Source of the DNA: a virus
Taxonomy: Duplodnaviria > Heunggongvirae > Uroviricota > Caudoviricetes
Length of the DNA stretch: 64,000 bases
Reading direction: 5' to 3' (one strand)
Virus record (IMG/VR): IMGVR_UViG_3300028914_000001
Location: 349,489-413,488 of that record
Shown: piece by piece, positions 5,115-27,410 of the stretch
How positions within the stretch are numbered: position 1 is the first letter of the stretch
How the letters are laid out: every line of letters starts with the position of its first letter
The notes under the pieces: generated by a model
Databases searched by the model: none
What the model was told of the DNA's origin: nothing
Seen by the model: the letters and a program-made list of their open reading frames with translations, nothing else
Made by a program: the position numbers and the translations under genes

Positions 5115-5126
5115 AGTTTATAAACT
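5115..5126. promoter_or_regulatory. Palindromic AGTTTATAAACT = TATAAACT putative late promoter on both strands
   Basis: Perfect 12-bp palindrome, 33 nt from the DUF4422 start (-) and 29 nt from the PQ-loop start (+). Confidence 0.65.
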
Positions 5127-10192: not shown

Positions 10193-11974
10193 TTAGAATT
10201 CTATCTCGTCGTCTTCACTTGTGTACGGGTCCCTTTCATTCTCGTGCTCGGTGTAGTAATCTTCCTCGCTCGGGTCGCCTGGGTTGTCGGGGTCATATTC
10301 TTCTTCAGATGTGCGTACACGGCCTCCGTAGGTCGGTGCTTCGTCTGGATACAATGCGGAGTATATATCTTCCTCGGACGGGGTGTCATCTGCGGTTTCG
10401 GCTGTACTTGCTGGCAGCCATAGTATCTTGGTTACAACCTGGAATGGATGCCCTGGCCTATGATATTCTTCAAAACCTAATATATTACCGTTTTCGTCTG
10501 GCTTGATGCTATCGAAACTCATGTGATGAATTTTTACACTTAACGGATTAAACGGTGGAGTCGAATATCTGGTAAGTTTCGACACCTTGTACTCATTCGG
10601 CTCCCTAGCGGCAAAAGCCCTGGCTTTCTTGTACATAAGCATGAAATCATCGTACGTTTGGTCACGTCGTATTCCCAATATGTTTTCAAGGGAATTAGAG
10701 CGCATCTCACCAATACATCCTACATTGGACCCTTCTTTTTGGAGGGGGACGGAAGTATCAAAGGCATCTCTCGGTACCCAGATGTACTTGGACGAGCTGT
10801 AGTTAAACCCGTCGTGACAACCAAAGCTGAATCCCCATGAGTTTCCATTTTTGTCTTCAGGGATGCTGTCATAATTTACGGATTGCACCTCGTTGGTATC
10901 AGTATCAATGAGGGGCATCTTATATTTTTTAATTGGACCTACATCGCCATAAGCTTCCATATCGTCATGCATTTTCAGGAAATCGGCGTAGCTCACATTA
11001 CTGCGTTTGCCTAAAGTTGAGCTTTTATAGTGTGATGTATAAACGTCACCCCTTTCATCGACATCTGGTTCTTGCAGTTTTCCAAACGAACCTTCGAGGC
11101 AAACCTTTGTTATATTCCCGACCGCTTCAAACTGATTCTTGCTAAGGCCAAGCTTGGCTACGTTTTCCATGAAAATATTGAATCTCTTATCCATTGTGTT
11201 ACCATTGGTACTTTCACCCAATAGTTTATAACCTGTCGGTTCCGATGGAGTAAGGAAGTTCTTGATGGTGACTCGGTCGCCCATGATTTCTTTAAGACGG
11301 TTCAAGTCTGGGTTCATACCCATCTTTGCAATCTGGTTCCTTGCCCACATGTTGTACAGGTCTTCATATACGACGAAGCTTAAACCTTTGTCGAACCGGG
11401 GCCACCTCTCAAAATTCCCGTAGAAGCTCGGGTCGATAATATGGCGTACGGTATTACTGCTTGGACGGTGGATTTCTCCCCACATGAGCTGCTCGATGTT
11501 GATGTCCTCGGGAGAAATACTCTCATGCGCCATGACTACATCGGCATTGTTCCGCACATCAAAGTCGTCTATGCGGTATTTTCTCAGGTTTTCTGGGGAA
11601 CAGTCGAGGGAAACTATCAACGGGCGAAAGGCATCGTATCCTCCGTTGCCGAATGGCTTGTTCATCGAAAACCATATACAATTAGATTCCCCGTTGTCGT
11701 TAATACGGAGTCCGTTAGTCAGTATGTCCCTGATGTCATCATTGTCCAATCCCGTCATGTAGCCGCAAATGTGGTACATCTTCGGGTAGCTTGCTCCGTC
11801 TACCGACTCCTTGAAAATGTGCATCTGTTGCAGATGTTCCTTCGCTTTCTTCTCGGACTTGTGCGAAGACAGGATTTTGCCCGTTTCGTGGCTCTTTATG
11901 ACCCACTCGGCGAGTTCACCCTTGGAGTTGCGATGCCCTTTAATATGGCAGACGTATTCGTATAGAGGTTGCAT
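10193..11974 (-). CDS. Putative virion-internal multi-module protein with ADP-ribosyltransferase (Tpt1/KptA-like) fold domain
   Basis: MYH...DILTNGL...IWFS...LIVSLD...HESISPEDI follows the YHxT..I...GL..V.LS..E.IPP..I pattern; upstream TATAAACT; acidic tail. Confidence 0.5.
   Translation of the reverse strand: MQPLYEYVCHIKGHRNSKGELAEWVIKSHETGKILSSHKSEKKAKEHLQQMHIFKESVDGASYPKMYHICGYMTGLDNDDIRDILTNGLRINDNGESNCIWFSMNKPFGNGGYDAFRPLIVSLDCSPENLRKYRIDDFDVRNNADVVMAHESISPEDINIEQLMWGEIHRPSSNTVRHIIDPSFYGNFERWPRFDKGLSFVVYEDLYNMWARNQIAKMGMNPDLNRLKEIMGDRVTIKNFLTPSEPTGYKLLGESTNGNTMDKRFNIFMENVAKLGLSKNQFEAVGNITKVCLEGSFGKLQEPDVDERGDVYTSHYKSSTLGKRSNVSYADFLKMHDDMEAYGDVGPIKKYKMPLIDTDTNEVQSVNYDSIPEDKNGNSWGFSFGCHDGFNYSSSKYIWVPRDAFDTSVPLQKEGSNVGCIGEMRSNSLENILGIRRDQTYDDFMLMYKKARAFAAREPNEYKVSKLTRYSTPPFNPLSVKIHHMSFDSIKPDENGNILGFEEYHRPGHPFQVVTKILWLPASTAETADDTPSEEDIYSALYPDEAPTYGGRVRTSEEEYDPDNPGDPSEEDYYTEHENERDPYTSEDDEIEF
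11223..11230 (-). promoter_or_regulatory. Intragenic TATAAACT motif 29 nt upstream of in-frame ATG 11194
   Basis: Same motif and spacing as the intergenic copies. Confidence 0.55.
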
Positions 11975-12001
11975 AGGGGAAACCAGATAGTTTTCCCCTA
12001 C

Positions 12002-12009
12002 AGTTTATA
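12002..12009 (-). promoter_or_regulatory. Putative late promoter TATAAACT
   Basis: 28 nt upstream of ATG 11974. Confidence 0.65.
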
Positions 12010-12011
12010 TC

Positions 12012-12191
12012 TCAGGATAACGCCTTGCTGATGATATCCTGTGCGACTTCAATGCATGCATCGCCAAATCGCCATCCGTTGTTGATGCGGTCTTCAAACC
12101 TGTCGGCAATGTCCAATGCGTTGTTGCAGTTAGAGAGTTGCTTAATATGGTACGAGACCACGTTCTTGTATTCCTGATAATCCAAAGCCAT
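12012..12191 (-). CDS. Small hypothetical protein
   Basis: MALDYQEY start after GGGGA RBS. Confidence 0.5.
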   Translation of the reverse strand: MALDYQEYKNVVSYHIKQLSNCNNALDIADRFEDRINNGWRFGDACIEVAQDIISKALS

Positions 12192-12202
12192 TGTAATTTC
12201 CC

Positions 12203-12502
12203 CTAAAACTGGCATGCCTTGCGTTCGACACGATATTGGCCGTCGTTTGCATACTGGTATTTCTCCCTCGTAAGTCGGGAGCCGTACTCACTGGTGATAC
12301 TTTCGACAATGACATTCTCCGTGTTCATTTCGAATTTAAGGTCGAAATCGCAGTTGGTCTTGGCGATTAGGATACCCTCATGGTAGATTAACCCCTGGAT
12401 GCCTTCTGCCTTGCATTCGCATCCTCCGAACATTCCAAGGATGCTTACTAACAGGCAGAGTGCCCCCAGAAAATACATGACTCGTTTTGATTCCTTGCTC
12501 AT
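12203..12502 (-). CDS. Putative exported/lipoprotein
   Basis: Hydrophobic N-terminus ending FGGC. Confidence 0.55.
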   Translation of the reverse strand: MSKESKRVMYFLGALCLLVSILGMFGGCECKAEGIQGLIYHEGILIAKTNCDFDLKFEMNTENVIVESITSEYGSRLTREKYQYANDGQYRVERKACQF

Positions 12503-13032
12503 ACTTTATCTCCTTTTATTTCAGTTACGTCCAGTTCATACCATTTGCTGTCTTTTTTATTTACTACCTTAATCTGCAATGTCTTGTCGCTATCGTCAGA
12601 TATGTCATACTTGCGTTCGTCGAGGATTTCGGCGGATTCGCCATTATCATAGCAATGTAAAAGCTGTACATAGACATGGTTCTTTTCACGAGCACATTCG
12701 AACAGGATGAAGTTATTCTTGTCGATATGTTCGTTATTCCATGTATAGCAAAGACCGTTGATATTTTTGAAGTCAGAAAGTGAGAACTGGCATTCAATAT
12801 CGGTAGGCGTTTTTGCCTCGATAGTACGCAAGTTATAGTCCGTATATACTACGTTCTTCATCTTTCTAAGTTCATCGGCAATTTTGCTGGGAACAATCGT
12901 CCTGTTGAAACATACCGTGGCAGAATTATCGTGGACTGAGATAACTCCATTGGATATGACATCGAACTTGACATCGTATCGGTCCTGAAGCTCTTTCAGG
13001 TTAATGAGAAATGTTTTAAGATTATTGGTCAT
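12499..13032 (-). CDS. Hypothetical protein
   Basis: Start MTNNLKTF avoids overlap with the upstream gene. Confidence 0.6.
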   Translation of the reverse strand: MTNNLKTFLINLKELQDRYDVKFDVISNGVISVHDNSATVCFNRTIVPSKIADELRKMKNVVYTDYNLRTIEAKTPTDIECQFSLSDFKNINGLCYTWNNEHIDKNNFILFECAREKNHVYVQLLHCYDNGESAEILDERKYDISDDSDKTLQIKVVNKKDSKWYELDVTEIKGDKV

Positions 13033-13049
13033 TGGTTGAATCTTTTTTG

Positions 13050-13406
13050 TTAGAATGGTAGCGTATCGTCCTTGTTGACAAGTAAAAGTTCCGTTAGCTC
13101 TGACTGGCTTAACGTGAACGGTGGGTAATACTTTCCCTTCACGTATTGCCTCGGCCTGTTCCACTTCTCGTACAGAAGGAACGGCATGAGAACCCGTGAG
13201 ACGAAACGGTAGGCCCGAATCATCTTGGTTACGAACGGGCTGTGGAAATCTTCTGGGTACAATTCGTTGAGCACTCGGTACGCTTCTTCGTCGCTAACCT
13301 GTTCTCCGTAGTAGTCTCCCGTGATGCTTCCATAGATTTCGCTAAAATACACACAGTTTCTGCAACAGGAAGTCGCATATCGTCGGCAGCGGTCACATAC
13401 AATCAT
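13050..13406 (-). CDS. Cys-rich hypothetical protein
   Basis: CDRC...CCRNC N-terminus; ATGA overlap. Confidence 0.6.
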   Translation of the reverse strand: MIVCDRCRRYATSCCRNCVYFSEIYGSITGDYYGEQVSDEEAYRVLNELYPEDFHSPFVTKMIRAYRFVSRVLMPFLLYEKWNRPRQYVKGKYYPPFTLSQSELTELLLVNKDDTLPF

Positions 13407-13702
13407 TTTGTTTCCTTGTTGAAAGCGATGTTTTCTACCTGTTCGGCACCGAATTCTACGATTGTCGGGATGTAGTCGTCATCGTCGAGGTCACGGCAAG
13501 CACGTTCGGCCTGTCCCAGTGATGAGTAGTGATGCCCAGTCGCCGGGTTGTCACTACACTCACAGAATCGAACCTTCTGTAGCCAACCTCGGTTTAAAAT
13601 CTTGCCTTTTATCTTCCACTGTACGAATACCATCCAGAAATGGAATGAGACATCCTTCGTAGGGAACTGGCGCTTTTCGAATGGAAGTGCTGTTCTACCC
13701 AT
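13403..13702 (-). CDS. Hypothetical protein
   Basis: Operon position, RBS. Confidence 0.6.
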   Translation of the reverse strand: MGRTALPFEKRQFPTKDVSFHFWMVFVQWKIKGKILNRGWLQKVRFCECSDNPATGHHYSSLGQAERACRDLDDDDYIPTIVEFGAEQVENIAFNKETK

Positions 13703-13704
13703 TG

Positions 13705-14076
13705 CTATACCCCCATGTCTGGCGTACGGCAGCCAAGATGGTTTGACTTCGGCTTTGCCTTGCCGTCATTCCAGCACTTGAACCGACATTCGGGACAGAA
13801 CGTGTAGTAGTCAACAATCACCTCGGGTGTCCATATGTCGGTGCCGCTGATGTTGTGCTCGCTCTGGACTTCCCGTGTCTTGCATTCGGTGATTTTCGTC
13901 TTGAACTCGCATCCGCATCTCGGGCACTTGAAGTCGAAGTACGGATTGCCGTGCTTGGTAATCTCGGACGATTCTGCAACGGGCCTGTCGTCTTGCTTGT
14001 CGTCGATATCGTCGACCGATTCAAACCAGCCCCAGAATGTTTTCCACGATTTTTTAATCAGTTCTTTGATATCCAT
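13705..14076 (-). CDS. Zn-ribbon hypothetical protein
   Basis: CPRCGCEF...CPEC. Confidence 0.6.
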   Translation of the reverse strand: MDIKELIKKSWKTFWGWFESVDDIDDKQDDRPVAESSEITKHGNPYFDFKCPRCGCEFKTKITECKTREVQSEHNISGTDIWTPEVIVDYYTFCPECRFKCWNDGKAKPKSNHLGCRTPDMGV

Positions 14077-14077
14077 G

Positions 14078-14317
14078 TTATCCCTTCTTTTCTTCACGGT
14101 CATCGACAGTCAATGACAGGATAATCTTTTTGCCAGTAGGGAGCTTCCAGGTGATTTCATAGGTATCGCTCCCCTTTTCAATCTTTCCCTTCATGTACTC
14201 GGCGACGGCACAGAGGGCCTCGTTGGTTACATCGTTCTTGACTTTCCAGACACCGGGCTTGCTTACGGTGCCTGCGTAGATTGCTGCCATCCCGCAGCCG
14301 ACGTGGTATTCTGCCAT
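14078..14317 (-). CDS. Hypothetical phage protein
   Basis: AAGGAG RBS; YHVGCG...IYAG...KNDVTNEA motif recalled from other phages. Confidence 0.65.
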   Translation of the reverse strand: MAEYHVGCGMAAIYAGTVSKPGVWKVKNDVTNEALCAVAEYMKGKIEKGSDTYEITWKLPTGKKIILSLTVDDREEKKG

Positions 14318-14472
14318 GTTAACTCCTTATAAGGGGGAACCCTTTATTGTCATTTTCTTGTGGCACTTTGTGCATTCAAACTTGTACGGCCACTTCTCTA
14401 CGCCGTATCCGTCTCTGGACAGCCTTTCCTTGAACGCAGTGGGTTCCCATCTGTGCCAACAGAAAAACTGTT

Positions 14473-14895
14473 TTAGCTTTGATTTGAACATGATTGCTCC
14501 ATTATTTTGTCAACATATTCGCACAACTCTTCAAGGTCTTTGTCGTACTCGACATCCATAGCGGCTACACTATCCATGTCCAATGCTAACACTTCTTTGA
14601 ACTTGTCATCTTCCTTTACATACCGCTTTGGCAAGCAGTCGGAATAGATGAATTTGCTGCTGTCCGACGGGTCTACCCTGCAGTCTACTCCATAGAACAT
14701 CTTTCCGCATTGGAACAGGGCGATATACCATTTACCAATGTCCGACGGTTCGACAACGAGGTCCGATTCACGGTTGTAAATCAGTTCCTTGACGATATCC
14801 TTCTTAATCCACTGGCAGAACATGTAAGCTTCTTTAAGCTGTTTGCCCCAATTCTTGGTCAGGTCAAAATCGTAGTAACTTTCTTCGTCCAACAT
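14473..14895 (-). CDS. Hypothetical protein
   Basis: 140 aa, operon. Confidence 0.65.
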   Translation of the reverse strand: MLDEESYYDFDLTKNWGKQLKEAYMFCQWIKKDIVKELIYNRESDLVVEPSDIGKWYIALFQCGKMFYGVDCRVDPSDSSKFIYSDCLPKRYVKEDDKFKEVLALDMDSVAAMDVEYDKDLEELCEYVDKIMEQSCSNQS

Positions 14896-14906
14896 ATTAG
14901 TAACCT

Positions 14907-15188
14907 TTAAGCAATCACTTCCTTGACTATGTTGCCATGTAGATATTTCTGGACATCTTCATCAAGCTTTTTCTTTTCTTCCACTACATAATCGAGGGAC
15001 TTCGAGCGGATTTCAACATACTTGTTGAGACGGACAGCTTTGTTCTGCCAATGGTGGATAATTCCTAGCGGTTCGGTGTCCCAAATCTGGACGAGGTACT
15101 CGTCAGTTTCCATCTTGACGATACGGGTGGCCAGGTGATGGTGATGTTCGATGTGGAGGATGTCTTTGATTTTGTTAATGATGCTCAT
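14907..15188 (-). CDS. Hypothetical protein
   Basis: AAGGAG RBS; HIEHHHH tract. Confidence 0.6.
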   Translation of the reverse strand: MSIINKIKDILHIEHHHHLATRIVKMETDEYLVQIWDTEPLGIIHHWQNKAVRLNKYVEIRSKSLDYVVEEKKKLDEDVQKYLHGNIVKEVIA

Positions 15189-15191
15189 GGT

Positions 15192-15518
15192 TTACTCCTT
15201 GTTTAAAATTTTAGAAACCAGTTCAGGTGGGTTCGGCTCCCAGGGGAGTGCATTCACGTCGAACTTTTCTGGATGAAGCATGACGTGGAGCGGTATGCCG
15301 TAATGAATCGGTTTTTCTTTCTGTTCTTCACGGGCCGCTTTCAACAATGTGATGATTTCGCCCTCGGTCGCACACCCGCAGTCCTGCTCGTCGATAAGCA
15401 GGGTGGTTTCTTCTTCCGAATGGTGCTTGCGGTATTCTCCAAGAAGGATGTCGAACACCTCCTTGGAAACAAGGACGCACTTGTCGAGCGTTTCGATGGC
15501 GTTTTCTAGTGAACACAT
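15192..15518 (-). CDS. Hypothetical protein
   Basis: First gene after the 15540-15568 promoter; GAGG RBS. Confidence 0.65.
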   Translation of the reverse strand: MCSLENAIETLDKCVLVSKEVFDILLGEYRKHHSEEETTLLIDEQDCGCATEGEIITLLKAAREEQKEKPIHYGIPLHVMLHPEKFDVNALPWEPNPPELVSKILNKE

Positions 15519-15539
15519 GTAATTTTACCTCGTGGTATA

Positions 15540-15568
15540 AATATATTTTAAATATGGAATTTTGTCAA
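15540..15568 (-). promoter_or_regulatory. Sigma70-like promoter TTGACA-N17-TATATT
   Basis: Exact motif on the - strand. Confidence 0.75.
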
Positions 15569-15578
15569 GAGGACACCC

Positions 15579-15776
15579 ATGCTCCCATACGAGAATAATG
15601 AACCTAATCTAGTCCACTTGTATCAGGCCGAATGCCACAACCCTGATATTCAAGCCGAGTGTCATAACCCGGACATCCAGGCAGAGGCTTCCGACCTCGT
15701 GCGTGAGAACTGTGCTGGATTTCGCCGTATAAATTACGATGCAAACGGATTTCCCGTCCCTAACGAAACTTGGTAA
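15579..15776 (+). CDS. Small protein with tandem QAECHNPDI repeats
   Basis: GAGGA RBS; two identical 9-aa repeats encoded by synonymously diverged codons. Confidence 0.6.
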   Translation: MLPYENNEPNLVHLYQAECHNPDIQAECHNPDIQAEASDLVRENCAGFRRINYDANGFPVPNETW

Positions 15777-15784
15777 ATGATGCC

Positions 15785-15813
15785 TTGCCAAAATCGTGGG
15801 CGTTGTCTATATT
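15785..15813 (+). promoter_or_regulatory. Sigma70-like promoter TTGCCA-N17-TATATT
   Basis: Motif and spacing. Confidence 0.7.
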
Positions 15814-15850
15814 TTAGTTGATTGCGTACTTTTCAAAATGGATTTGATTT

Positions 15851-16627
15851 ATGATTATTATTGACCCTCACCCGTTCGTTTTCAAGCAGGTCAAGACGAT
15901 GCTTAGGGAACTGTGCGACAAGCCCAAGTACGAAAAGACCATGGTCGTGCTCGGGTACAACGTGATGAACTGTTCCGAGGCAAGGCGGCTTAAAGCGAAG
16001 CATCCCGACCACAAGCTGGTTATCTACAACATGGAGCAACTCTACCGTGGGAGCCCATGGATTAACTCGAATACGAGAGTATGGTTCGAACAGGCTGACG
16101 AAATCTGGGATTACAACTTGGAGAACATCCAGTTCTTCTCCGATGTTCTCGGTTACAGGGCGAGCTACCATCCAGTAAAGTGGGTCGAATCCCTGAAGAC
16201 TATCGAGCAGGTGAAGCCTGAGGACATGCTGTATGACGTGCTTTTCTACGGGGAGGAAACCCCTAGAAGGACCAAGCTGATAGGGGCGATGCGTTCCGCA
16301 CACCGTGACTGGGCGGTAATCACGGCCACTGGCGTAACGGGCAAGGCTCTCGACTACCTCATTGCACATTCCAAGATTATCCTGAACATACATGCCTTTC
16401 CGCAGTACCAGTGTCAGGAAATCGTCCGCATGTTCTACCCGCTAATCAACGGGAAGTGCATCGTCAGCGAGCCGTCCAAGAACGACAACTATGCGGGCGA
16501 CTCCATCGTCTATTCCTCCTACGACAACATGATTGAAACAGTTAACGGGCTTCTTACTGATGGTAAATGGATTAAAGTCGCTTCTGAGGCTTCTGACAGG
16601 TTCCGCAGACACACAACAGCCAAGTGA
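15851..16627 (+). CDS. GT-B-type glycosyltransferase-like protein
   Basis: IYNMEQL, IWDYNLEN, YDVLFYG...RR, SKIILNIH...EIVR...CIVSE. Confidence 0.65.
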   Translation: MIIIDPHPFVFKQVKTMLRELCDKPKYEKTMVVLGYNVMNCSEARRLKAKHPDHKLVIYNMEQLYRGSPWINSNTRVWFEQADEIWDYNLENIQFFSDVLGYRASYHPVKWVESLKTIEQVKPEDMLYDVLFYGEETPRRTKLIGAMRSAHRDWAVITATGVTGKALDYLIAHSKIILNIHAFPQYQCQEIVRMFYPLINGKCIVSEPSKNDNYAGDSIVYSSYDNMIETVNGLLTDGKWIKVASEASDRFRRHTTAK

Positions 16628-17456
16628 GCCTGTACAGGAGAAAAAGCCTCCTCGTAAAGTGTACAAGTACACTGTAATCGAGTGTGTCCTCGGCGGGTAT
16701 GACTTGGTCAGGGAAGTGAAGAATGCCAGCAGCGATGTCCATTACCTGATGATAACGGACAGCAAGAAGGTGAAAAGCAAGACATGGGATATCCACCACG
16801 TTTCGGAATACCCGTGCCTTGCGAACATCGACGATGCGATAGGTGTCCTTAACTACATCCGCTACCATACGTTCGAGTTTGCCGATACCGACGTGTCCAT
16901 CTACATGGATGCAAGCATGCAGATAAACAAGCCCCTGACGAAGCTGTATGAAGACTTTGTCAATTCCAAGTCCGATATCGGCCTGTCCATACACCCTTAC
17001 AGGACGAATGTTTACGACGAGCTTCACGCATGGCAGTCGGCCCGTGGCCTTTCATCAGAAGAGGTTGCCAGCCAACGGAAGCTGTTCGCCAAGACCTCGT
17101 TCAACAAGTCCGTATTGTTCCAGTCTGGAGTAATCATCCGCCGGAATGTAAAGGTGGTCAACATAATTGACGACATCACATGGGCCATGCTGAGGCTTAC
17201 CGGGGTGACTTCCTATACGGCGAGGGTTGACCAGACAATCCTCAGCTATGTCCTCGCCACATATTTCAGCGGGGTCAAGTTCCTCCTGTTCACGCAGCAT
17301 CTGATTCAATCGAGTTACATAACATGGTTCAAGCACGGTTCAAACGAAAAGATTCTCATCGACAAGAGATATTATGTACGGCCCTCCGTTTTTGGCGTGT
17401 ATGTGACCCCTTATATGATTGAACCTGTCGAAAAGCCTGAAAATAAGGTATTTTAA
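16560..17456 (+). CDS. DUF616-family glycosyltransferase-like protein (start uncertain, 16533 or 16560)
   Basis: LGGYD, YLMITD, SIYMDAS, HPYRTNVYDE, DQTILSYV. Confidence 0.7.
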   Translation: MVNGLKSLLRLLTGSADTQQPSEPVQEKKPPRKVYKYTVIECVLGGYDLVREVKNASSDVHYLMITDSKKVKSKTWDIHHVSEYPCLANIDDAIGVLNYIRYHTFEFADTDVSIYMDASMQINKPLTKLYEDFVNSKSDIGLSIHPYRTNVYDELHAWQSARGLSSEEVASQRKLFAKTSFNKSVLFQSGVIIRRNVKVVNIIDDITWAMLRLTGVTSYTARVDQTILSYVLATYFSGVKFLLFTQHLIQSSYITWFKHGSNEKILIDKRYYVRPSVFGVYVTPYMIEPVEKPENKVF

Positions 17457-17492
17457 TAACGACGGTGTGAACATGCCGTCAAGGATATTTGA

Positions 17493-18629
17493 ATGCAGTT
17501 TGGCGTTATTGAGAAGAGAATTACTCGTTTATGGTGCAAGACCCCGGCATTGCTCATAGGTCCTCCCGGAATAGGAAAGACCCAGTTCTGCCGCAGCCTT
17601 GCGGGAAAGCTTGGATTGAAACTTGTCTGCCTCGACTGTTCTCAGTCTGGCGACTCTGGCGACCTTATCGGGTTGCTCGAAATCGAGAACCATGTTCACC
17701 ACCACACCAAACCAGAATGGATGGACACAAAGGAAGCGACCCTAGTCTTTATCGACGAAATCAACCGTGCCAAGGGCGAAATCATCGCCGCCCTGATGAA
17801 GCTGTGTTCCCCCGAACAGTCGTTCAACGGTTTCACGCTCCCGGAAGGTTCCCGTGTCGTGGTCGCAATCAACCCGTCCAACGTGGATTCCAACCAGGTG
17901 CTTCCAATCAACAGGGCCCTGTTCACCCGTTTCGCCCGATACCATGTCGAGGTGGACGCCAAGTACTGGTGCAGGTGGGCGGCAAACGCCGGAATCAACC
18001 AGACGGTCATACGCTTCATAGACGGCCACAACAGCGCCCTCTATGTTGACGATACCGAGCTTGATTCGGAAGACGAAAACACGGCCAACCCCCGTTCATG
18101 GGAGAATTTCGCACGTCTTTTCGACAACGCATACAAGGCTGGCGACTATGTGGACGAGAACGGCCTGCCAAGACCGGGCGGGATGGAAACCCTGCTTGTG
18201 GACGCAACTTCGACCCTCGGCCCCGACATGGCGAAGACTTTCACCGAATGGTTCAAGAAGAACGGGAATACTCTCGATGCAGAGGAGGTTCTTCATGCGA
18301 ACGAATGGGACTGGGTGAAATTCAAGAGTATCATCGACGGGATGAGCGCAATGCAGCTTACAAAGCTGAGCGATGCCATTGTCGGCAAGATGGCGAACTC
18401 CTACGAGAATTCAAGGCAGACGAGGACGATGTCCCTGAACTTCTGGTACTACTACTTCGCAGTCAAGCCGGAGATAAAGGCCCAGATGTACAACATGCAC
18501 CTGATAGACCTTGTCCTGCAGATTTCCGAGGGAAAGGACAACTGGCTATCTCGCCTTAGGGAACATGTCGGCGAAGACAAGAAGGATATGCTCAAATCCA
18601 GTTTCAGCGAGTTCAACCAGGTTAACTGA
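17493..18629 (+). CDS. MoxR-type AAA+ ATPase
   Basis: Walker A GPPGIGKT, Walker B FIDEINRA, ALFTRF, NPRSWE. Confidence 0.9.
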   Translation: MQFGVIEKRITRLWCKTPALLIGPPGIGKTQFCRSLAGKLGLKLVCLDCSQSGDSGDLIGLLEIENHVHHHTKPEWMDTKEATLVFIDEINRAKGEIIAALMKLCSPEQSFNGFTLPEGSRVVVAINPSNVDSNQVLPINRALFTRFARYHVEVDAKYWCRWAANAGINQTVIRFIDGHNSALYVDDTELDSEDENTANPRSWENFARLFDNAYKAGDYVDENGLPRPGGMETLLVDATSTLGPDMAKTFTEWFKKNGNTLDAEEVLHANEWDWVKFKSIIDGMSAMQLTKLSDAIVGKMANSYENSRQTRTMSLNFWYYYFAVKPEIKAQMYNMHLIDLVLQISEGKDNWLSRLREHVGEDKKDMLKSSFSEFNQVN

Positions 18630-19945: not shown

Positions 19946-19970
19946 TTTTGTTTCTGACTGTATTTATATT
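19942..19970 (+). promoter_or_regulatory. Sigma70-like promoter TTGATT-N17-TATATT upstream of DNA polymerase
   Basis: Motif and spacing. Confidence 0.55.
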
Positions 19971-20035
19971 TGGATAGATACAGTTAGCTTGTTCATAATA
20001 TAGTTAATTAAATTGAGCTATTATGAGGTTTTTAC

Positions 20036-22978
20036 ATGAGCGATAAGCAAGAAGAGCTGCCTAAGAAGAAGATGTGGTCCACCATCTACCACGACACGGC
20101 AAACGACCAGATGTACATGTGGTATATCGACGGGACCAGCGAGGTTCTTCCAGTAAGGCACCGTTCCTATACGAACCGTCTTGGTGAATACGGTGCTGTC
20201 GAGTGCGGGATGAAGGACATCTTCGGAAACGATGTGTACGAGTTCTACCTGTCCCACAACGAGGAAAAGGAAATCAAGCGGAACTATCAGGGTTCGCAAA
20301 ACCATTTCAACGAGATTGATATCGACCCACGATGCCGATTCCTGCAACAGCAGTATGAAGGATACGACATCGAGCCGCCGAAAATCAAGGACATGAACCT
20401 TTGCTTCCTTGATATCGAAGTCTCGACCGAGGGTAGGTTTCCTGTCCCTTGGTTGGCTGAATACCCGATTAACCTCATCATCCTCAACTTTGCAGAATAC
20501 TCAGTCCAGTTCGGAACCCTCGAAGTTGATGATGCGACCCTTGAAAAGTACAAGGCTTTGAACTGCCAGTACATCAAGTGCGCAACCGAAGCGGAACTCC
20601 TGACGGGCACTTTCAACTACATCAGGGAGCATAACGTAGATATCCTCTCTGGTTGGAACTTCGCATACGATACCGAGTTCATTTACCGCCGTGCAAAGAA
20701 GCTTGGCATCCCTCTCAAACTCATGTCGAGAATGCCAGCCGGAACCGAAAGAGCTTACTTCGACGAGAAGAAGAAAGAGCTTCATATCGCTGGTACGGAA
20801 GTCATGGACTTCTACCTCCTCTACAAGAAGTACACTTTCTCCGAAGAGCCGAGCTACAAACTCGATTACATCGCAGAAAAGGAAGTTGGCGAGAACAAGG
20901 CTCCGCTTCCTGATGGATACCTTTCGTGGAAAACATATCCCTCAGAGTTCTCATACTATAACGTGATAGACGGTGTCCTGTGTAGAAAAATCCAGAACAA
21001 GAAAAAGATGTTCGACCTTGCGCTTATGTCCTCTGCTGAGGCACGAGTGCCGATTACATCCGTGTTCGAATCCAAGAAGATGATGGTGGGCTTCGTTCTG
21101 AACCACCTTCACAAGCAGCACATGGTGTTCCCTGTTTACAGGCCTACTGCAAAGGAGGAATACCCCGGCGCATTCGTGTATTCCGTCCCTGGGTTCTACA
21201 AGATAGAGGTTTCGTACGACTACCGAAGCCTTTATCCGTCAATCATGATGACATTCAACATCAGCCCTGAAACCAAGGTTATCAAGCCGATTGACTATGT
21301 GCTTACCGAGGAGGAAAAGAAGGTCCTCATCAGGTCGCCGTGGACTCATAACGGCCAATACCAGGTGTTCTACCGCAAGGATGTGGAAGGTATCGTTCCT
21401 CAGGTTACTAGAAAGCTGTTCAACGGTCGTGCCGAACTGAAGATTAAGAAGAAGCAGGCCGAAAAGGACGGTAACGAAGAACTGATGGAAATATACGACA
21501 TGATGCAGAAGGTGTACAAGGTGCTCGGTAACTCCCTGTACGGCTTGCTCGGTACTCCGTTCTTCGCTTTCTACGATATCGACAATGCTGCATCAATTAC
21601 GGCTTACGGCCAAAAGCTCATCAAGTATACCTGCAAGAACCTTGCCGAGTACATCAACAACGACTTGTCCAAGGACCAGAGGTTTATCAACACGTTCGGC
21701 TACTCCCCGAAAATCAACCCTGACTACTGCGGTGAAATCTTCTGGAACGAAGCGAACGTGGACTTCGACGATGTTGAAAAGGCGACTGAATGGGGTTACG
21801 ACATCACGAGTGACATCCTGCAACGAAGAATGTCCCACGGTGATACCGACTCCTTCTACGCCAAGTTCGATGACATCTACGAGGAGTTCAGCAAGAACCA
21901 GGGCAAGAAAGTTCAGGTTGTCGTGTATGACGGACACCAGATTATTCAGAAGAACGACTTCAATGCACTGGACGAGATGGCCTACAAGAAGAACTTCGCC
22001 CTTATGGCCCATACATATTGCCCGGATGTCTACCATAACCCGAAGAACATGGAACCTCAGGAAGTCAAGGGCAGCAAGTTCAAGTTCACCAAGTTGCAGA
22101 TTATGTACAAGGACGGCATGATTTCGAACAAGCGTTACCGGGTCATTCTCAACCGTTACCGCCTGACCGACTTCTGCCGTATGTTGGATGCTTCCATTCT
22201 TGAAGAGAAGCTGGATGAGTACATGCTTGGTTACGCATCGTCTTGGGGCTTCCGTACGAACGAACTGTTCCTGAAACGTGAAAAGTGCATCTACAAGACC
22301 ATCGTGACCGCCAAGAAGAAATACATCTGCGTGGCCGAATCCAACGAAGACATCGTGTACCTTGACATGAAGAAGGAAGACCTCCCGATTCATCCGCACT
22401 ACGCAATCACTGGTCTCGAAATCGTGCGTTCATCGACTACCATGTTCTCTCGTGAACGTATGATGGACACCGTGGAGCTCATGATGGATACCATGGACAG
22501 GGAAACCCTCCGTAAGCGTGTCGTGGAAATCAAGGACGAGTACACCCAGAAGATTATGGACCAGTCGTACCTTGATATTTCCTGTCCGTCAGGTGTCAAG
22601 GAAGAACCTCCTGAATACACAGAGATGATTAACTTCCCTAAGGAAGAACTGAAGAAAATCGACTGGCGTAGAAAGGCGGCCTCCGTTTGGAACTACCTTA
22701 TCCTCAATGACCGTGAACTCATGAAGAAGCCGTACGAACCTATCCATGCTGGCGACAAGATGAAGTACATCAAGGTGTGCGACAACCCGTTCGGTATCAC
22801 GGCTATCGGTTACACTGGCGATGTAGTCCCGCCTCGCTTGCTCCAACTGTTCCAGCCGGACTGGGAAGGCCACTGGAAGGTCACCGTGTCCAACATCCTT
22901 GGGCGTTTGTTCAAGGCGGTAGGATGGGGTGAGAACATCGAGGAAGACCAGACTGAAATGATGTGCGACCTGTTCTAA
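20036..22978 (+). CDS. Family B DNA polymerase (T4 gp43/RB69-like) with 3'-5' exonuclease
   Basis: ExoI FLDIE, ExoII GWNFAYD, ExoIII YNVID; YDYRSLYPS, KVLGNSLYG, GDTDS, KKKY, GLEIVRSST; C-terminal MMCDLF clamp-binding-like motif. Confidence 0.95.
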   Translation: MSDKQEELPKKKMWSTIYHDTANDQMYMWYIDGTSEVLPVRHRSYTNRLGEYGAVECGMKDIFGNDVYEFYLSHNEEKEIKRNYQGSQNHFNEIDIDPRCRFLQQQYEGYDIEPPKIKDMNLCFLDIEVSTEGRFPVPWLAEYPINLIILNFAEYSVQFGTLEVDDATLEKYKALNCQYIKCATEAELLTGTFNYIREHNVDILSGWNFAYDTEFIYRRAKKLGIPLKLMSRMPAGTERAYFDEKKKELHIAGTEVMDFYLLYKKYTFSEEPSYKLDYIAEKEVGENKAPLPDGYLSWKTYPSEFSYYNVIDGVLCRKIQNKKKMFDLALMSSAEARVPITSVFESKKMMVGFVLNHLHKQHMVFPVYRPTAKEEYPGAFVYSVPGFYKIEVSYDYRSLYPSIMMTFNISPETKVIKPIDYVLTEEEKKVLIRSPWTHNGQYQVFYRKDVEGIVPQVTRKLFNGRAELKIKKKQAEKDGNEELMEIYDMMQKVYKVLGNSLYGLLGTPFFAFYDIDNAASITAYGQKLIKYTCKNLAEYINNDLSKDQRFINTFGYSPKINPDYCGEIFWNEANVDFDDVEKATEWGYDITSDILQRRMSHGDTDSFYAKFDDIYEEFSKNQGKKVQVVVYDGHQIIQKNDFNALDEMAYKKNFALMAHTYCPDVYHNPKNMEPQEVKGSKFKFTKLQIMYKDGMISNKRYRVILNRYRLTDFCRMLDASILEEKLDEYMLGYASSWGFRTNELFLKREKCIYKTIVTAKKKYICVAESNEDIVYLDMKKEDLPIHPHYAITGLEIVRSSTTMFSRERMMDTVELMMDTMDRETLRKRVVEIKDEYTQKIMDQSYLDISCPSGVKEEPPEYTEMINFPKEELKKIDWRRKAASVWNYLILNDRELMKKPYEPIHAGDKMKYIKVCDNPFGITAIGYTGDVVPPRLLQLFQPDWEGHWKVTVSNILGRLFKAVGWGENIEEDQTEMMCDLF

Positions 22979-22980
22979 TC

Positions 22981-23015
22981 AAAAAGCGGCCCGAAATTCG
23001 GACCGCTTCTTTTTT
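22981..23015. terminator. Bidirectional intrinsic terminator
   Basis: AAGCGGCCCGAA-A-TTCGGACCGCTT with A/T tails between convergent genes. Confidence 0.8.
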
Positions 23016-23033
23016 GCATTGAGTAAAATTTGT

Positions 23034-24596
23034 CTATGCACCCCCGAAGGCTTTCTTTGCCTCGGCGGTTTTTTTCTTGACATTTTCGATGACGGTGCAT
23101 ATCGTCTGCACATCGGCCAAGAGCTTTTTATCATCACCCTGCTTGACAGCAGCGAGCATGTTGTCTGCATTGTCGAGAAGTTTTTCTAGCTCAGATACAC
23201 AACTATCTACATCTTCTGCGCTCATGTCGTTTGAATGGCCTTTCTTGTACAGGTCGATGTTCTTTTCCATAGTTTTCTTGTAGTTCTCTAACAGAGTGCT
23301 CCAATTCTGCTTGTACTCAGTCTCGTCGAGTCGTTTAATGCCTGACACGAACTGGTTCATCACTTCTTGCTTGGTGATTCCCATGAAGTCGAAGAAGATT
23401 TTAAGGGATTTCTTTACCTGACGGCGAGCGGCGGAGACAAGCCCGTTGATTTGCGTCTGTGCTTCTTTCTGTGTCATTTTGCCGCTGCTGAACTTTTTCT
23501 GTATATTGTTAACTTCCGCCTGGTCCTTCTCGTCAAGAATCTTAGTTTGCTTCAGGTTAAGATAGTCGTTAATGTCGTCGCTTAATCTGGTGTTCTTAGA
23601 TTCGTTTTCTTCTGGATTCATCCAGCTCATCGTACTATTTGGGTCAGATGCATTCAACTTGATTCTGCCAAGATGGTACTTCTTGACAGCGATGTTCATG
23701 ATGTAATCGGACAGCGCCTTACCAGAAGGATTTCCTTGGCAGAACTGATTGAATTCTTCATTTTCTGACGCCACAGTTTTGGCCAGTTTTGTCTTAGGGG
23801 CTCCATCGGCATTGGTAGACTGTGAACTGAACGTACTCTGCGCTGCAGCACTGTTTTCATCCAACGCCTGTATGCCGTACAACAGGTTTTGGATTTCTTC
23901 ATCGAAATCCTTTACTTCGTCATAGAATTCCTCTCGTACACTCGATTTGCCGTCGCTTTCGAAATATTTTTTTAGCTCATCCAACATTTGCGGTACGATA
24001 TCCGTCATGTCTGTTTTGATGGTGTCAAATGCGTGTTCTGTCTGCGTAAAGCTAAACCAAGCATTTCCTTGTTTGAGGAATCCACTAAGGGCAGGAGGGA
24101 AATTCTCTGTACAGTATTTATCGAAGTTGATGAAGTTGTTGTACAGGTAAAGTACATGTATAGCGTTTTTCTGTAGAGACACTATACCCTTATCAGGGTT
24201 TTTAATTTCTAGGTATTTTTTATAATCCTTAACCTTGCTTGCTATTTCTGGCGGAAGACTGTCCAACTGACCGAGTATTGCATTCCATCCCTTAGCATCG
24301 TCATTGATGGTTGCTTCTTCCCTGTCGTCGTTCGAGACGGTGTAGTCGCTATCGTGAGCTTCCTTTGAGACGAACTCATCGTTCGGCTTCTCGGGTTGTC
24401 CAACCGTCTGTGTCTCCGTGGACGCACCGTCGTCCGAGACTTCCTGATAGTCGTAAGTTGCGTTGATAGCGTCTTCGTCCAAGCCAGCATTCTGCATGAT
24501 TTCGTTGAGCTTCGCAAGAAGTTCTTTCTTAGTGCGAAGCACATCGTCTACACGCTTTCCAGTTTTCTTGTACAACAAATAAGATTTCGTTGCCAT
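23034..24596 (-). CDS. Large helical hypothetical protein, probable late/virion protein
   Basis: AAGGAG RBS before MATKSY; third gene of a TATAAACT-headed operon. Confidence 0.7.
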   Translation of the reverse strand: MATKSYLLYKKTGKRVDDVLRTKKELLAKLNEIMQNAGLDEDAINATYDYQEVSDDGASTETQTVGQPEKPNDEFVSKEAHDSDYTVSNDDREEATINDDAKGWNAILGQLDSLPPEIASKVKDYKKYLEIKNPDKGIVSLQKNAIHVLYLYNNFINFDKYCTENFPPALSGFLKQGNAWFSFTQTEHAFDTIKTDMTDIVPQMLDELKKYFESDGKSSVREEFYDEVKDFDEEIQNLLYGIQALDENSAAAQSTFSSQSTNADGAPKTKLAKTVASENEEFNQFCQGNPSGKALSDYIMNIAVKKYHLGRIKLNASDPNSTMSWMNPEENESKNTRLSDDINDYLNLKQTKILDEKDQAEVNNIQKKFSSGKMTQKEAQTQINGLVSAARRQVKKSLKIFFDFMGITKQEVMNQFVSGIKRLDETEYKQNWSTLLENYKKTMEKNIDLYKKGHSNDMSAEDVDSCVSELEKLLDNADNMLAAVKQGDDKKLLADVQTICTVIENVKKKTAEAKKAFGGA

Positions 24597-24606
24597 ACTC
24601 ATCTCC

Positions 24607-25797
24607 TTATTCTTCCTTGGCATAGTCCAAGATGTTCTTGTGTTCAGTTTCCTTTGCATTGCCCTGTTGAGCCTTGTTATCTTCCGTCGGTTTCTGCGGC
24701 GTATTTACCGTTTTCTGCTCCGTAGGTTTCTGGGAAGAGCTTTCGTCAATGCAGTCGCTGTCCTTGATGTTTTCGGCAAGCTGGAACGTATTAGGTTTCA
24801 TCTTGTCTCCACTTGCGTTCTCTGCGTCGCATCTTGCAATCCACCACTTGAACTGGTCACGGTCCTTCACATGCTTGATGACATATGTCCTAGCGGCTGC
24901 CCTAGACTTGAAGAATCCGATACGGACACGCCATACATCCTTGCGGCTAGAGTTATGCGCTTGACCATCGTACTGATAAATATACACGCCTTTCACGCCT
25001 TCGTCAAATTCGTGCTTTGCCTGGTATGCGGCGGTCTTTTTGTTATTGCTGCTGTATGACACGAGGTTAACAACGTATGGGTATTTAGGGTTGCATTGCT
25101 CGCCTCTGATTTCTTGGAAATCACTGTCCTTCCATTTGTACTGCGGGGCCGGGGCCTTCTTCTCTGGTTTTTGTAGTTCCTGTGTCTTGACAGGCGCTTC
25201 GGTAACCTTCTTTGGTTCCGGGCATACTGGCGGGCATTCGACCTTCGGCGGTTCAACCTTCGGCGGTTCAACCTTCGGTTCTGGTTGCCTTACGGGAGTA
25301 GGAGGTTCTACCTGCGGAGGAGGTGGAGGAACATTGTCCCAAGCATCGTTGGCATGCATGTTGACACGAGCTTCATATCCTCTCGGGTCAATCTTTTGTC
25401 GTGAGCGGTTCATTTCGATTTGTTCGTAATGCTTGTCGGCTGCGTTTCCTCTGGGGTTAAACTTCTGCCAAGCGATTACGTTTGCCCCTGTGGGAGGTTG
25501 CAGGCTTGCATTTCGGGCGACAGCGTCGTTTCCGTTGAAGCGTGTCTTTTCACTCCATCTGTTCGTTTTACGAGGGTCGGTTGCGCCAAGTCCAGTCCTG
25601 AAACGAACCCCCTCCCTGGTTACACCCTCACGGTACTCGAACAAGGCTCTGTGTGCGTTAGCTACTGCCTCGACAAGTTCACGGGGAGCGATTTCGCTTA
25701 CTGCCTCGACGAAGGCACGAAAGCGCTTCTTTGCAATCCTTTTTGGACTAAGTGTGCCTTCCATCAAGGCTACATCGTATTTTTCCCTATTATTCAT
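24607..25797 (-). CDS. SPOR-domain protein with Pro-rich linker
   Basis: YVVNLVSYSS...WRVRIGFFKSRAAA SPOR-like pattern; PPPPP and KVEPP repeats. Confidence 0.6.
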   Translation of the reverse strand: MNNREKYDVALMEGTLSPKRIAKKRFRAFVEAVSEIAPRELVEAVANAHRALFEYREGVTREGVRFRTGLGATDPRKTNRWSEKTRFNGNDAVARNASLQPPTGANVIAWQKFNPRGNAADKHYEQIEMNRSRQKIDPRGYEARVNMHANDAWDNVPPPPPQVEPPTPVRQPEPKVEPPKVEPPKVECPPVCPEPKKVTEAPVKTQELQKPEKKAPAPQYKWKDSDFQEIRGEQCNPKYPYVVNLVSYSSNNKKTAAYQAKHEFDEGVKGVYIYQYDGQAHNSSRKDVWRVRIGFFKSRAAARTYVIKHVKDRDQFKWWIARCDAENASGDKMKPNTFQLAENIKDSDCIDESSSQKPTEQKTVNTPQKPTEDNKAQQGNAKETEHKNILDYAKEE

Positions 25798-25815
25798 AGC
25801 ATTCTCCTTAAACCG

Positions 25816-27375
25816 TTATTGTGCATCGCCTGCATCGAACATTTCGTGCAGGGCTTCGCTAAGACCGTCTATTTTCAAAGCCTCGTTAATTGCTTCCTGG
25901 TCAGTCTCGTTTGCAGATGAATATTCTTTAAGCATCTCTTTCGCCTTGCTTTCGTCACCGTCGTTCAGGAACATGAAGTATGCGGTGAGCAAGGAACCGA
26001 CGAGCGCACCGACAGTTTTTCCTGTCGTACTGTCAAATCCGAGCAACTGCGCTCCGTATTTACCAGCGATGCCTCCACCAATCACGGCGATTGCCTTGGC
26101 TACCGTCTTGGCTGTATCCATCTTGCTTCCGTCAATGTCAATCCATTCGAGGTTGATATCTTCCGGGTTAGTGATGATATCGTACAGCTTGTAGCCGCCA
26201 TAAGTCAGTCCGGCAAGGGCACCAAGTTTGAGCGCTCCCTTGAATGCTTTCCATGCCCCAATCCTTACTTGGTTCACCGTTCCGATTACAGGAATCCTGT
26301 TGATGAGTGAGTTGAGCAAACCGGGTTTACCGAATCTTGCATAGAACGGGATTCCGTACTGGTCAACATACATTCCTGCATTAGGGTTGCCGTTGAATCT
26401 CCTGTTTCTCTCGCTGAACGGGTTACGATTGGCTTGTGCGTTACCGAAGTACCGGGAGCTTGGCTGCGACAACCTGGCTTCTCTATTGACCATGTTGATT
26501 CGTTGGTCGATTTCATTTAATTGCGGTTGGTACCTCTGGATTACCTCATCACGGGCCTTATAATGGTCATTAACGAGCTTGTTTAGTCGTTTTTTGTGGT
26601 TTACAGGCAGGATTGGTGCTATCTTCTGCTGCTCTTCGAGCTTTCTGAGATTTTCTTTGAACGAGTTCTCTAGTTGTTCTATCTCTTGGTTTCGGGCGAA
26701 CTCTATCTGTTCCTTTGAGTTTGCCAGTTCATTGACATTGAAGTTCCTCGAACCTTTGTTGAATCCGATGTCCATCATTTCGTTGTACTCGGTTCCTGCT
26801 TTGCCGGATGCCTTGAACCTCAGGTCGTTCATCTTTTGACGAACCTTTTGTCTGCTGTCAAATAGCTTTTCAGCCTTCTTTGCGTTTCTGCCGCTGAGAT
26901 TGTATGGGTCGAGGCCCATTATCCTGTCAAGACGCTCGGACAGTTTAGCATCCTTGGTTGCGAGCTTGCCAAACTTCTCCAATCGGTTGGCTTTTCTGCC
27001 AGCGGTCGAAAACAGGTTCTTTACCCAAGTCATCGGGCCTTCCATAAGAATCTGTATCTGCTGGTCGTCAAGGCTTTCAAGGAAGTTCACCTTTTCATTA
27101 TCGCTCATGCTATCGACCAACGCCGTCAAATTCTGCTGGTCTTCAAGGCTCATGATGCTAGGCGAAGCTTCGGCAACATCCGTTATGACCTGCTCGTCGG
27201 CTGCCGTATCTACTACGTCATCTACGGCGTCCTTTACGGCAGTTGCCACGGTATCGGCAACTTGTTCGGCATCCTGTGCCCCAAACAGTGCGTTATGGAG
27301 CTGCATGACGCTTTCAAGCTGGTTCTTCGAGAGAATCTTTCTCGCCGATTGCTCAAATAGCTGCTTATTGTTCAT
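25816..27375 (-). CDS. Coiled-coil protein with C-terminal glycine-zipper/TM segments, probable virion protein
   Basis: LGALAGLTYGGY, AVIGGGIAGKYGA, VGALVGSLLTAYF; upstream TATAAACT. Confidence 0.65.
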   Translation of the reverse strand: MNNKQLFEQSARKILSKNQLESVMQLHNALFGAQDAEQVADTVATAVKDAVDDVVDTAADEQVITDVAEASPSIMSLEDQQNLTALVDSMSDNEKVNFLESLDDQQIQILMEGPMTWVKNLFSTAGRKANRLEKFGKLATKDAKLSERLDRIMGLDPYNLSGRNAKKAEKLFDSRQKVRQKMNDLRFKASGKAGTEYNEMMDIGFNKGSRNFNVNELANSKEQIEFARNQEIEQLENSFKENLRKLEEQQKIAPILPVNHKKRLNKLVNDHYKARDEVIQRYQPQLNEIDQRINMVNREARLSQPSSRYFGNAQANRNPFSERNRRFNGNPNAGMYVDQYGIPFYARFGKPGLLNSLINRIPVIGTVNQVRIGAWKAFKGALKLGALAGLTYGGYKLYDIITNPEDINLEWIDIDGSKMDTAKTVAKAIAVIGGGIAGKYGAQLLGFDSTTGKTVGALVGSLLTAYFMFLNDGDESKAKEMLKEYSSANETDQEAINEALKIDGLSEALHEMFDAGDAQ

Positions 27376-27402: not shown

Positions 27403-27410
27403 AGTTTATA
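27403..27410 (-). promoter_or_regulatory. Putative late promoter TATAAACT
   Basis: 28 nt upstream of ATG 27375. Confidence 0.65.

Follow-up and report, generated by a model that had tools for sequence, protein, structure and literature searches.

A predicted two-helix leader on diverse late proteins of a T4-type gut phage as a probable capsid-targeting propeptide

Introduction

The 64,000-nucleotide window analysed here, bases 349,489-413,488 of an IMG/VR virus record (422,150 bp, estimated to be complete, with direct repeats at its termini), raises the question of why late proteins that are otherwise unrelated should carry a common leader of about 33 residues. A first-pass annotation of the sequence had placed such a leader on three proteins, here called A, B and C, and had read it as a candidate N-terminal capsid-targeting propeptide of a potentially uncharacterised kind. 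All three leaders were found where it had placed them, on the minus strand: MDKRF...VCLE in A, from the ATG at 11194, MNNKQLF...ALFG in B (residues 1-32) and KKRFRAF...ALFE in C (residues 23-54). The leader, or tag, is probably an enlarged, folded capsid-targeting propeptide of the T4 type. On this reading the tag system is a longer variant of the established T-even kind, and the suggestion of an uncharacterised system does not stand, since in T-even phages varied cargo is already known to be addressed to the capsid by a modular tag (PMC3012670, PMC9026906).

The phage itself is a distant T4-type myovirus, with a family-B DNA polymerase about 28% identical to the enzymes of T4-like phages, a gp23-family major capsid protein (MCP; 218 bits) and portal and scaffold open reading frames (ORFs) that adjoin the capsid-protein and protease genes. 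Near-identical DNA is found in bovine and sheep gut libraries. Logan contigs of a bovine-gut metatranscriptome run (X1) contain pieces 100% identical to A, B, C and the neighbouring gene D; these contigs give no transcript start, strand or level, and therefore show only the presence of this DNA or RNA in bovine gut samples.

Spread of the Leader Family

A 37-position hidden Markov model (HMM), built from the three window leaders alone and run with no filters against all ORFs from a six-frame translation of the genome (7301), matched six more ORFs (E 2e-7 to 5e-3), with several others just below, and nearly all of these matches fell at the start of an ORF, after the Met. The likeness among the three leaders is beyond chance. 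Five iterations of the model brought the family to 19 included and 21 curated members in the genome, and an alignment of 21 leader rows (A1), used for a profile search of related genomes, found 24 places in the genome that contains the window (G000), 22 in a complete 419-kb sister genome (G006), and 15, 13 and 13 in three partial relatives. A survey of 1.84 billion representative proteins returned 120 cluster representatives at E<=1e-3, of which 117 were found again by the iterated leader profile at E<0.01; the other three, long repetitive proteins, were taken as false positives. All public cluster members examined are unnamed or labelled 'hypothetical protein'. Such a scan of the genome and its relatives had been proposed in the first-pass annotation with the expectation of many late genes with varied C-termini, and its outcome was positive.

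The match begins within the first 15 residues in 93 of the 117 representatives, and the tag is N-terminal in 20 of the 21 genome members, the exceptions being the A family, where it is internal, and C, where it follows a conserved extension of 22 residues. The description of the leader as N-terminal thus holds strictly for B and has to be relaxed for C and for A, in which the leader begins at residue 261.

Similar beginnings can also be picked out by eye in G001, a 260-kb genome of a clade with 66% capsid-protein identity (L101-L113). Several of its TATAAAC-driven late ORFs, for example those starting at 82798(-), 97413(+), 184392(+) and 128826(+), open with 30-38 residues that end in ...AC..[LV][LF]E and are followed by A or S. 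Judged on these letters, the N-termini are possibly a diverged form of the tag.

Anatomy of the Tag and Its Predicted Cut Site

The tag spans 32-34 residues with the consensus M-x(2-5)-[LI]-F-x-E-x-[VI]-x-x-L-G-L-x-x-x-Q-x-E-A-[VI]-x-x-[LI]-x-x-[AV]-[CL]-[LMF]-E, after which come S, G or A and an acidic stretch. Met1, Phe7 and Glu33 are each kept in at least 90% of the 117 representatives, and Phe7 is the sole invariant hydrophobic residue. An AF2 model of a 204-aa family member places helices at residues 75-87 and 93-108 with an LGLS turn between them (pLDDT ~80), and disorder begins directly after the terminal Glu. The tag is thus modelled as a helix-turn-helix hairpin of about 33 residues.

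Two other identities for this segment were tried and rejected. The LGLS..Q stretch resembles the turns of helix-turn-helix (HTH) DNA-binding motifs, but a Pfam scan of 21 leaders at E<=1 matched no HTH or other family. A mimic of a scaffold segment, suggested by eye by the scaffold's QFKSLVEAVS, scored -1.6 bits with the leader HMM on the scaffold, below the maximum of 5.1 obtained with shuffled scaffolds.

In a logo of 49 representatives, P3 is C, L or I in 45, P1 is E in 45 and P1' is S, G or A in 42, with acidic residues next. In the T4 record (NC_000866), IPII and IPIII start MKTYQEFIAE|A and IPI starts MKTFKEF...ITE|A, while gp23 matures at FLTE65|A; the phage's own capsid protein aligns GFLPE|S at that point and so keeps the FL(T/P)E|A/S maturation site of T4. 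By its letters, the tag end, [C/L/I]-[L/M/F]-E followed by S, G or A, is a predicted site of the same kind as the IAE|A, ITE|A and LTE|A of T4. A gp21-type protease is encoded in the genome: the 241-aa prohead protease matches Peptidase_S77 (PF03420, the gp21 family) with 49.4 bits against a cut-off of 27, and its ELNHP and SxRG motifs align with those of T4 gp21. Phe7 is likewise shared with T4, since IPII and IPIII both carry it in MKTYQEFIAE|A; in the T4 sequence, residues 4 and 7 serve targeting and residues 8 and 10 processing (PMC9026906). The HMM test, the gp21-type protease and the gp21-type cut motif support the capsid-targeting part of the first-pass annotation, and what has to be given up is the notion of a strictly N-terminal address.

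If the leader is such a propeptide, the hairpin would bind tagged proteins to the core of the assembling prohead late in infection, and the gp21-family protease would cut after the terminal Glu, just where helix 2 gives way to the disordered acidic linker. The freed cargo would stay in the head and be ejected into the next host, where the envelope would be the site of action of peptidoglycan binders and of a lytic transglycosylase, and the cytoplasm that of NUDIX enzymes and possibly of ADP-ribosyltransferase (ART)-like ones. Protein A would be a polyprotein-like chain with its tag in the middle and a candidate Glu site at each junction.

Points Against a Propeptide and the Docking Alternative

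Several observations weigh against this reading. The tag is about three times longer than that of T4, and its P3 residue is commonly Cys, outside the L/I-x-E rule of T4. The leader HMM gives no signal on T4 IPI, IPII and IPIII (<=0.1 bits), so homology between the tag and the T4 sequence is unproven; by eye the two agree only at M1, at F7 and in having an acidic residue around position 9-10. No leader match was obtained by HMM in G001, even with filters off. No cultured relative exists, as the closest capsid protein among GenBank phages is only about 30% identical. In A and about 20 related cluster representatives the tag lies internally, 75-550 residues into the protein, and we know of no precedent in T4 for such a position. 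An 80-aa protein of a further relative, G004, consists of the N-domain of the A family and a leader, with neither cargo nor terminal Glu. Finally, B has Gly at P1 in place of the terminal Glu, while its orthologues end in ALFE. This Gly is not a sequencing slip, because the same form recurs in a separate cluster representative (P0022).

Some of these points would suit a hairpin that is a permanent docking or assembly module for a part of the virion (inner shell, portal or core), kept rather than removed, with its Glu retained for binding. The internal position in some proteins and the absence of cargo in the 80-aa protein fit such a module, as do the Gly at 'P1' of B, tolerated in two cluster representatives, and a conservation that spans all 33 residues and not just the last three. 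We nevertheless consider it unlikely. The tag end, including the small P1' residue, matches the gp21-type site both of the phage's own capsid protein and of T4 substrates, and the disordered acidic linker starts exactly past the Glu. Moreover, T4 proteins with a changed P1 residue are still loaded though no longer clipped (PMC9026906), and the propeptide model can therefore accommodate B; on its sequence, the B tag may be loaded and left unclipped.

Diversity of the Tagged Cargo and Alternative Destinations

Outside the tag, its carriers are non-homologous. The differing cargoes ascribed to the three window proteins were all borne out by Pfam, repeat and motif scans, with a SPOR domain in C, a tandem repeat in A and a glycine-zipper part in B. 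The C-terminal part of B holds three [GAS]xxxGxxx[GAS] motifs and is mildly hydrophobic (top 19-residue Kyte-Doolittle mean 1.37), a membrane-active-looking cargo by sequence, and C would by its domain content be a SPOR cell-wall binder. Genome-wide, tagged cargoes comprise SPOR, WG repeats, NUDIX, PG_binding_1 and PG_binding_3, SLT and glycine-zipper proteins. Among the 117 representatives, Pfam identifies PG_binding_3 in 14, PG_binding_1 in 12, SLT in three, WG repeats in two, and Fib_succ_major and bactofilin in one each, the rest having no family.

The single Fib_succ_major case is a tagged representative with a Fibrobacter succinogenes major paralogous domain (PF09603, E 9e-12), which hints at Fibrobacter or a relative as the host.

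The tag might instead target a site other than the head interior: the tail or baseplate, the cell envelope at lysis, or a structure that the phage builds within the cell. The many cargoes that bind the cell wall would in that case act from outside the head. PG_binding domains in 26 of the 117 representatives, SLT in three and the SPOR domain of C point that way, and three peptidoglycan-related tagged genes cluster at 241-247 kb of the genome beside late structural-looking genes. The tag, however, does not have the form of a hydrophobic or a twin-arginine signal, it is carried equally by cytoplasmic-type enzymes (NUDIX, possibly ART-like), and tagged genes lie within the head-core module. The Glu-specific cut site also suits the head protease, which in T4 is active only inside proheads (PMC9026906). 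Another destination is accordingly judged quite unlikely, and targeting to the head interior remains the preferred reading.

Selection on the Leader Peptide

Between G000 and G006, whose capsid proteins are 95% identical, the tag of B is 87.5% identical and the rest of the protein 28-51%, with a dN of 0.06 against 0.62 and saturated dS. For C, identity amounts to 78% in the tag, 43% in the linker and 80% in the SPOR domain. The tagged proteins thus diverge far more than the capsid protein, and unevenly. Across orthologues, leader dN lies at 0.06-0.19 with dS saturated, and selection therefore acts on the peptide and not on the DNA. The regions of tagged genes are hypervariable islands within otherwise close genomes. 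Over the interval 10193-27375, dS against G006 is 1-3 (saturated) despite the near-identity of the capsid proteins.

These rates bear on a further possibility, namely that the shared stretch is mainly a nucleic-acid cassette (promoter, 5' UTR and start) that serves expression or the shuffling of cargo, the encoded peptide having no targeting role. The A family carries in frame the translation YKLLGE of TATAAACTATTGGGTGAA, that is, of a putative late promoter and 5' UTR, which looks like a recombination scar, and the cargo after the leader is hypervariable between near-identical phages. Against a cassette, paralogous leaders within one genome share 13-40% protein identity and their DNA differs freely, yet M1, F7 and E33 persist; the low leader dN at saturated dS speaks the same way. 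This account is very improbable.

Protein A and the Internal Tag

In A, the leader sits between an N-terminal part of 260 residues and a duplicated cargo (Table 1). The upstream 260 residues are coding. Between G000 and G006, dN/dS is 0.035 in the N-domain and 0.18 in the middle module, and the frame stays open across the junction in G006 (493 aa) and in another relative, G007 (762 aa), though the middle and cargo parts differ. About 20 cluster representatives are built alike, with the N-domain, 0-450 variable residues, [Y/D]KL[LI]GE..MDKR, the leader, a hypervariable cargo and an acidic ...EF end; this ...EF C-terminus is conserved across the A family, while the cargo of A is only 15% identical to that of G006. 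The tandem repeat of about 105 aa in the cargo has a local score of 99 against a shuffle maximum of 48. By reading of the sequence, the junctions of A carry the candidate Glu sites IFKE|S, LLGE|S and CLE|G.

The AF2 model of an N-domain homologue (P0020) has three strands and a helix (pLDDT ~90), for which Foldseek found no PDB match at E<=0.001, the top match being the YegP-like 3bid at E 0.28. The middle module has no Pfam match and no PDB sequence match; AF2 of full-length A has a mean pLDDT of 37.9 and leaves this module, at about 25-30, unmodelled. The named ESM-Atlas neighbours of the module are DarT/PARP (0.91), Arr (0.90) and Tpt1 (TM 0.35), at the level of a lead. In the corresponding protein of G007 (762 aa; L096, G007 69600-72785), the stretch that separates the N-domain from the internal leader holds a zinc ribbon (CSHCG...CPSC), a zincin-like HEAGH motif and a P-loop (GMGKTT), which by these motifs are different enzymes set in the same frame.

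A second product may be nested in the long form. A copy of the promoter-like motif TATAAACT within the gene starts 36 nt before Met261, and a 333-aa product from the ATG at 11194 is therefore possible. G006 and G007 read GATAAACTA at this site, so the intragenic motif is not universally kept and the long form is the conserved product. At 11977-11999 (minus), a GGGGAAA...TTTCCCC hairpin lies between a TATAAACTG motif and the long-form ATG of A, and could modulate translation of the long form versus the nested product.

It is possible, though doubtful, that the hairpin tag is a position-independent packaging domain that loads polyprotein-like chains with cargo on both sides, and that the A locus is a hypervariable effector cassette. 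The conserved 57-aa N-domain and leader and the acidic ...EF tail would then be its frame, and ART-like, zincin HExxH and P-loop enzymes would be swapped within it from one near-identical phage to another.

Promoter-like Motif and Gene Neighbourhood

The motif TATAAACT is putatively a late promoter by likeness to the TATAAATA of T4. It occurs in eight copies in the window, where 1.7 are expected, and in 65 in the genome; 61 of these have an ATG-initiated ORF downstream, with spacing sharply peaked at 31-37 nt. The 9-mer TATAAACTA has 53 genome copies and precedes 14 of the 21 tagged genes, and TATAAACT also stands upstream of the protease-scaffold operon and of many structural-looking genes. 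All three leaders had been described as lying in units driven by this motif. A copy precedes B and each of the two starts of A; C lacks one, but its start is only 18 nt downstream of the stop codon of B.

Table 1. Positions of the A, B, C and D genes and their parts, counted from the first letter of the window.
Feature	Position	Strand	Remarks
TATAAACT promoter-like motif before A long form (ATG 11974)	12002..12009	-	motif scan
Protein A, long ORF, 593 aa	10193..11974	-	N-domain, middle module, internal leader, duplicated cargo, acidic ...EF tail
A N-domain, residues 1-57, MQPLYEYVCHIKGHRNSKGELAEWVIKSHETGKILSSHKSEKKAKEHLQQMHIF...	11804..11974	-	91% identical to G006 copy
A middle module, residues 58-248	11231..11803	-	ADP-ribosyltransferase fold a lead only
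Intragenic TATAAACT(A)	11223..11230	-	36 nt from motif start to in-frame ATG 11194 (28 nt in between); the spacing of 36 nt is within the 31-37 nt peak
A leader, residues 261-294, MDKRFNIFMENVAKLGLSKNQFEAVGNITKVCLE, then G	11093..11194	-	HMM 75.6 bits
A cargo	10196..11092	-	acidic linker, two ~105-aa repeats, acidic tail ending EF
TATAAACT(A) before B	27403..27410	-	starts 35 nt before B ATG
Protein B, 519 aa	25816..27375	-	leader, acidic/coiled region, glycine-zipper C-terminal part
B leader, residues 1-32, ending ALFG not ALFE	27280..27375	-	HMM 69 bits
B glycine-zipper-like segments, residues 381-470	25966..26235	-	motifs at 381, 430, 452
Protein C, 396 aa	24607..25797	-	22-aa extension, leader, Pro-rich linker, SPOR domain, tail
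C leader, residues 23-54, KKRFRAFVEAVSEIAPRELVEAVANAHRALFE, then Y	25636..25731	-	HMM 71.3 bits
C SPOR peptidoglycan-binding domain, residues 240-305	24883..25080	-	Pfam PF05036, E 9.2e-5, 23.1 bits, cut-off 21
Gene D, up to 541 aa, next in B-C-D unit	23034..24659	-	no leader; ORF listing

The longest ORF of D overlaps the end of C by 53 nt in another frame, and C and D are separate ORFs in G006 and G007. In G004 (L122), the C orthologue lies within an open frame of 868 aa, where C may be fused with a D-like part. Elsewhere in the window, at 5115-5126, two copies of TATAAACT overlap back to back on opposite strands between divergent ORFs, forming a AGTTTATAAACT palindrome that looks like a compact bidirectional late promoter.

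In the head region of the genome, one tagged protein is encoded directly upstream of the protease-scaffold operon and a tagged NUDIX protein directly downstream of the portal-MCP genes. The tagged protein upstream of the protease (245 aa; L001:2340-3077, G000 155068-155805, minus) has a SWIM-like CxC...CxH zinc motif (CTCPDF...CKHLL) and occupies the place of the T4 core genes 67/68. A phage search with the tagged head-module protein gave no real match. Between this protein and the protease, at about 154788-154964 of G000 (minus), lies a 59-aa TATAAACT-driven ORF that starts with MAIPGLKDNDARSLISYLLNGDSTNVEKMVNAYME, then S, and the likeness of this start to the leader is confined to helix 2 and the cut site.

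Implications

Were the propeptide reading true, a single compact and recognisable tag would serve a clade of rumen megaphages to load about two dozen different proteins into each head. Proteins that bind the cell wall would be among them, as would a transglycosylase, a NUDIX hydrolase and possibly an ART, and the repertoire of injected effectors could be listed from sequence alone for uncultured T4-like jumbo phages. The concept of the T4 capsid-targeting sequence would grow from 10 residues to a folded hairpin, and the internal tag of A would show that a terminal position is not required. For engineered capsids, the hairpin would be a second means of packaging protein, and possibly a more specific one. 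What the window newly contributes is the internal-tag family, the Gly variant of B, the extension of C and the contrast in rates between tag and cargo.

Comparison with Known Systems

Short portable peptides direct diverse cargo into HK97-fold shells as the cargo-loading peptides of encapsulins and in P22 scaffold fusions. Unlike the tag, these loading peptides are C-terminal, uncleaved and unrelated in sequence, and the comparison is one of analogy only.

Among giant phages, gp47, gp53 and gp54 of the phiKZ-like SPN3US carry long N-terminal propeptides on ejection or inner-body proteins (PMC5694885, PMC7411985, PMC10052503). As with the tag, these head-protein propeptides are longer than those of T4 and are inferred to target the prohead, the N-termini are conserved between diverged paralogues, and a T4-related prohead protease cuts after Glu. 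The SPN3US propeptides, in contrast, measure 20-130 residues, are shared by paralogues only and are cut at A/S/G-x-E, whereas one compact motif is found here on non-homologous proteins with a predicted cut at [C/L/I]-x-E. The tag thus has neither the A/S/G-x-Glu site nor the paralogue-only sharing of the phiKZ/SPN3US type, P3 being C, L or I in the logo of 49 representatives and its carriers being non-homologous. This phage also has scaffold and capsid-protein genes of the T4 type.

The T4 capsid-targeting sequence (CTS) was reportedly found to be removed by gp21 by Mullaney and Black in 1996. It is carried by IPI, IPII, IPIII and Alt, from which the prohead protease gp21 removes it (PMC9026906, PMC3012670). 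The two differ in size, 10-19 residues in T4 against a predicted 33-residue two-helix hairpin here, and in reach, with four carriers in T4 and about 24 per genome here. The tag also departs from the CTS in the common Cys at P3, in having no profile-detectable similarity to it, in being known from sequence alone, and in that it may be internal, as in the A family, or stand behind a 22-aa extension, as in C. Like the CTS, it starts otherwise unrelated, fast-evolving and non-essential-looking proteins, shares Met1 and Phe7 and ends in hydrophobic-x-Glu followed by a small residue, and it occurs, in a late-promoter context, in a genome that also encodes a gp21-family protease and head genes of the gp20/22/23 type.

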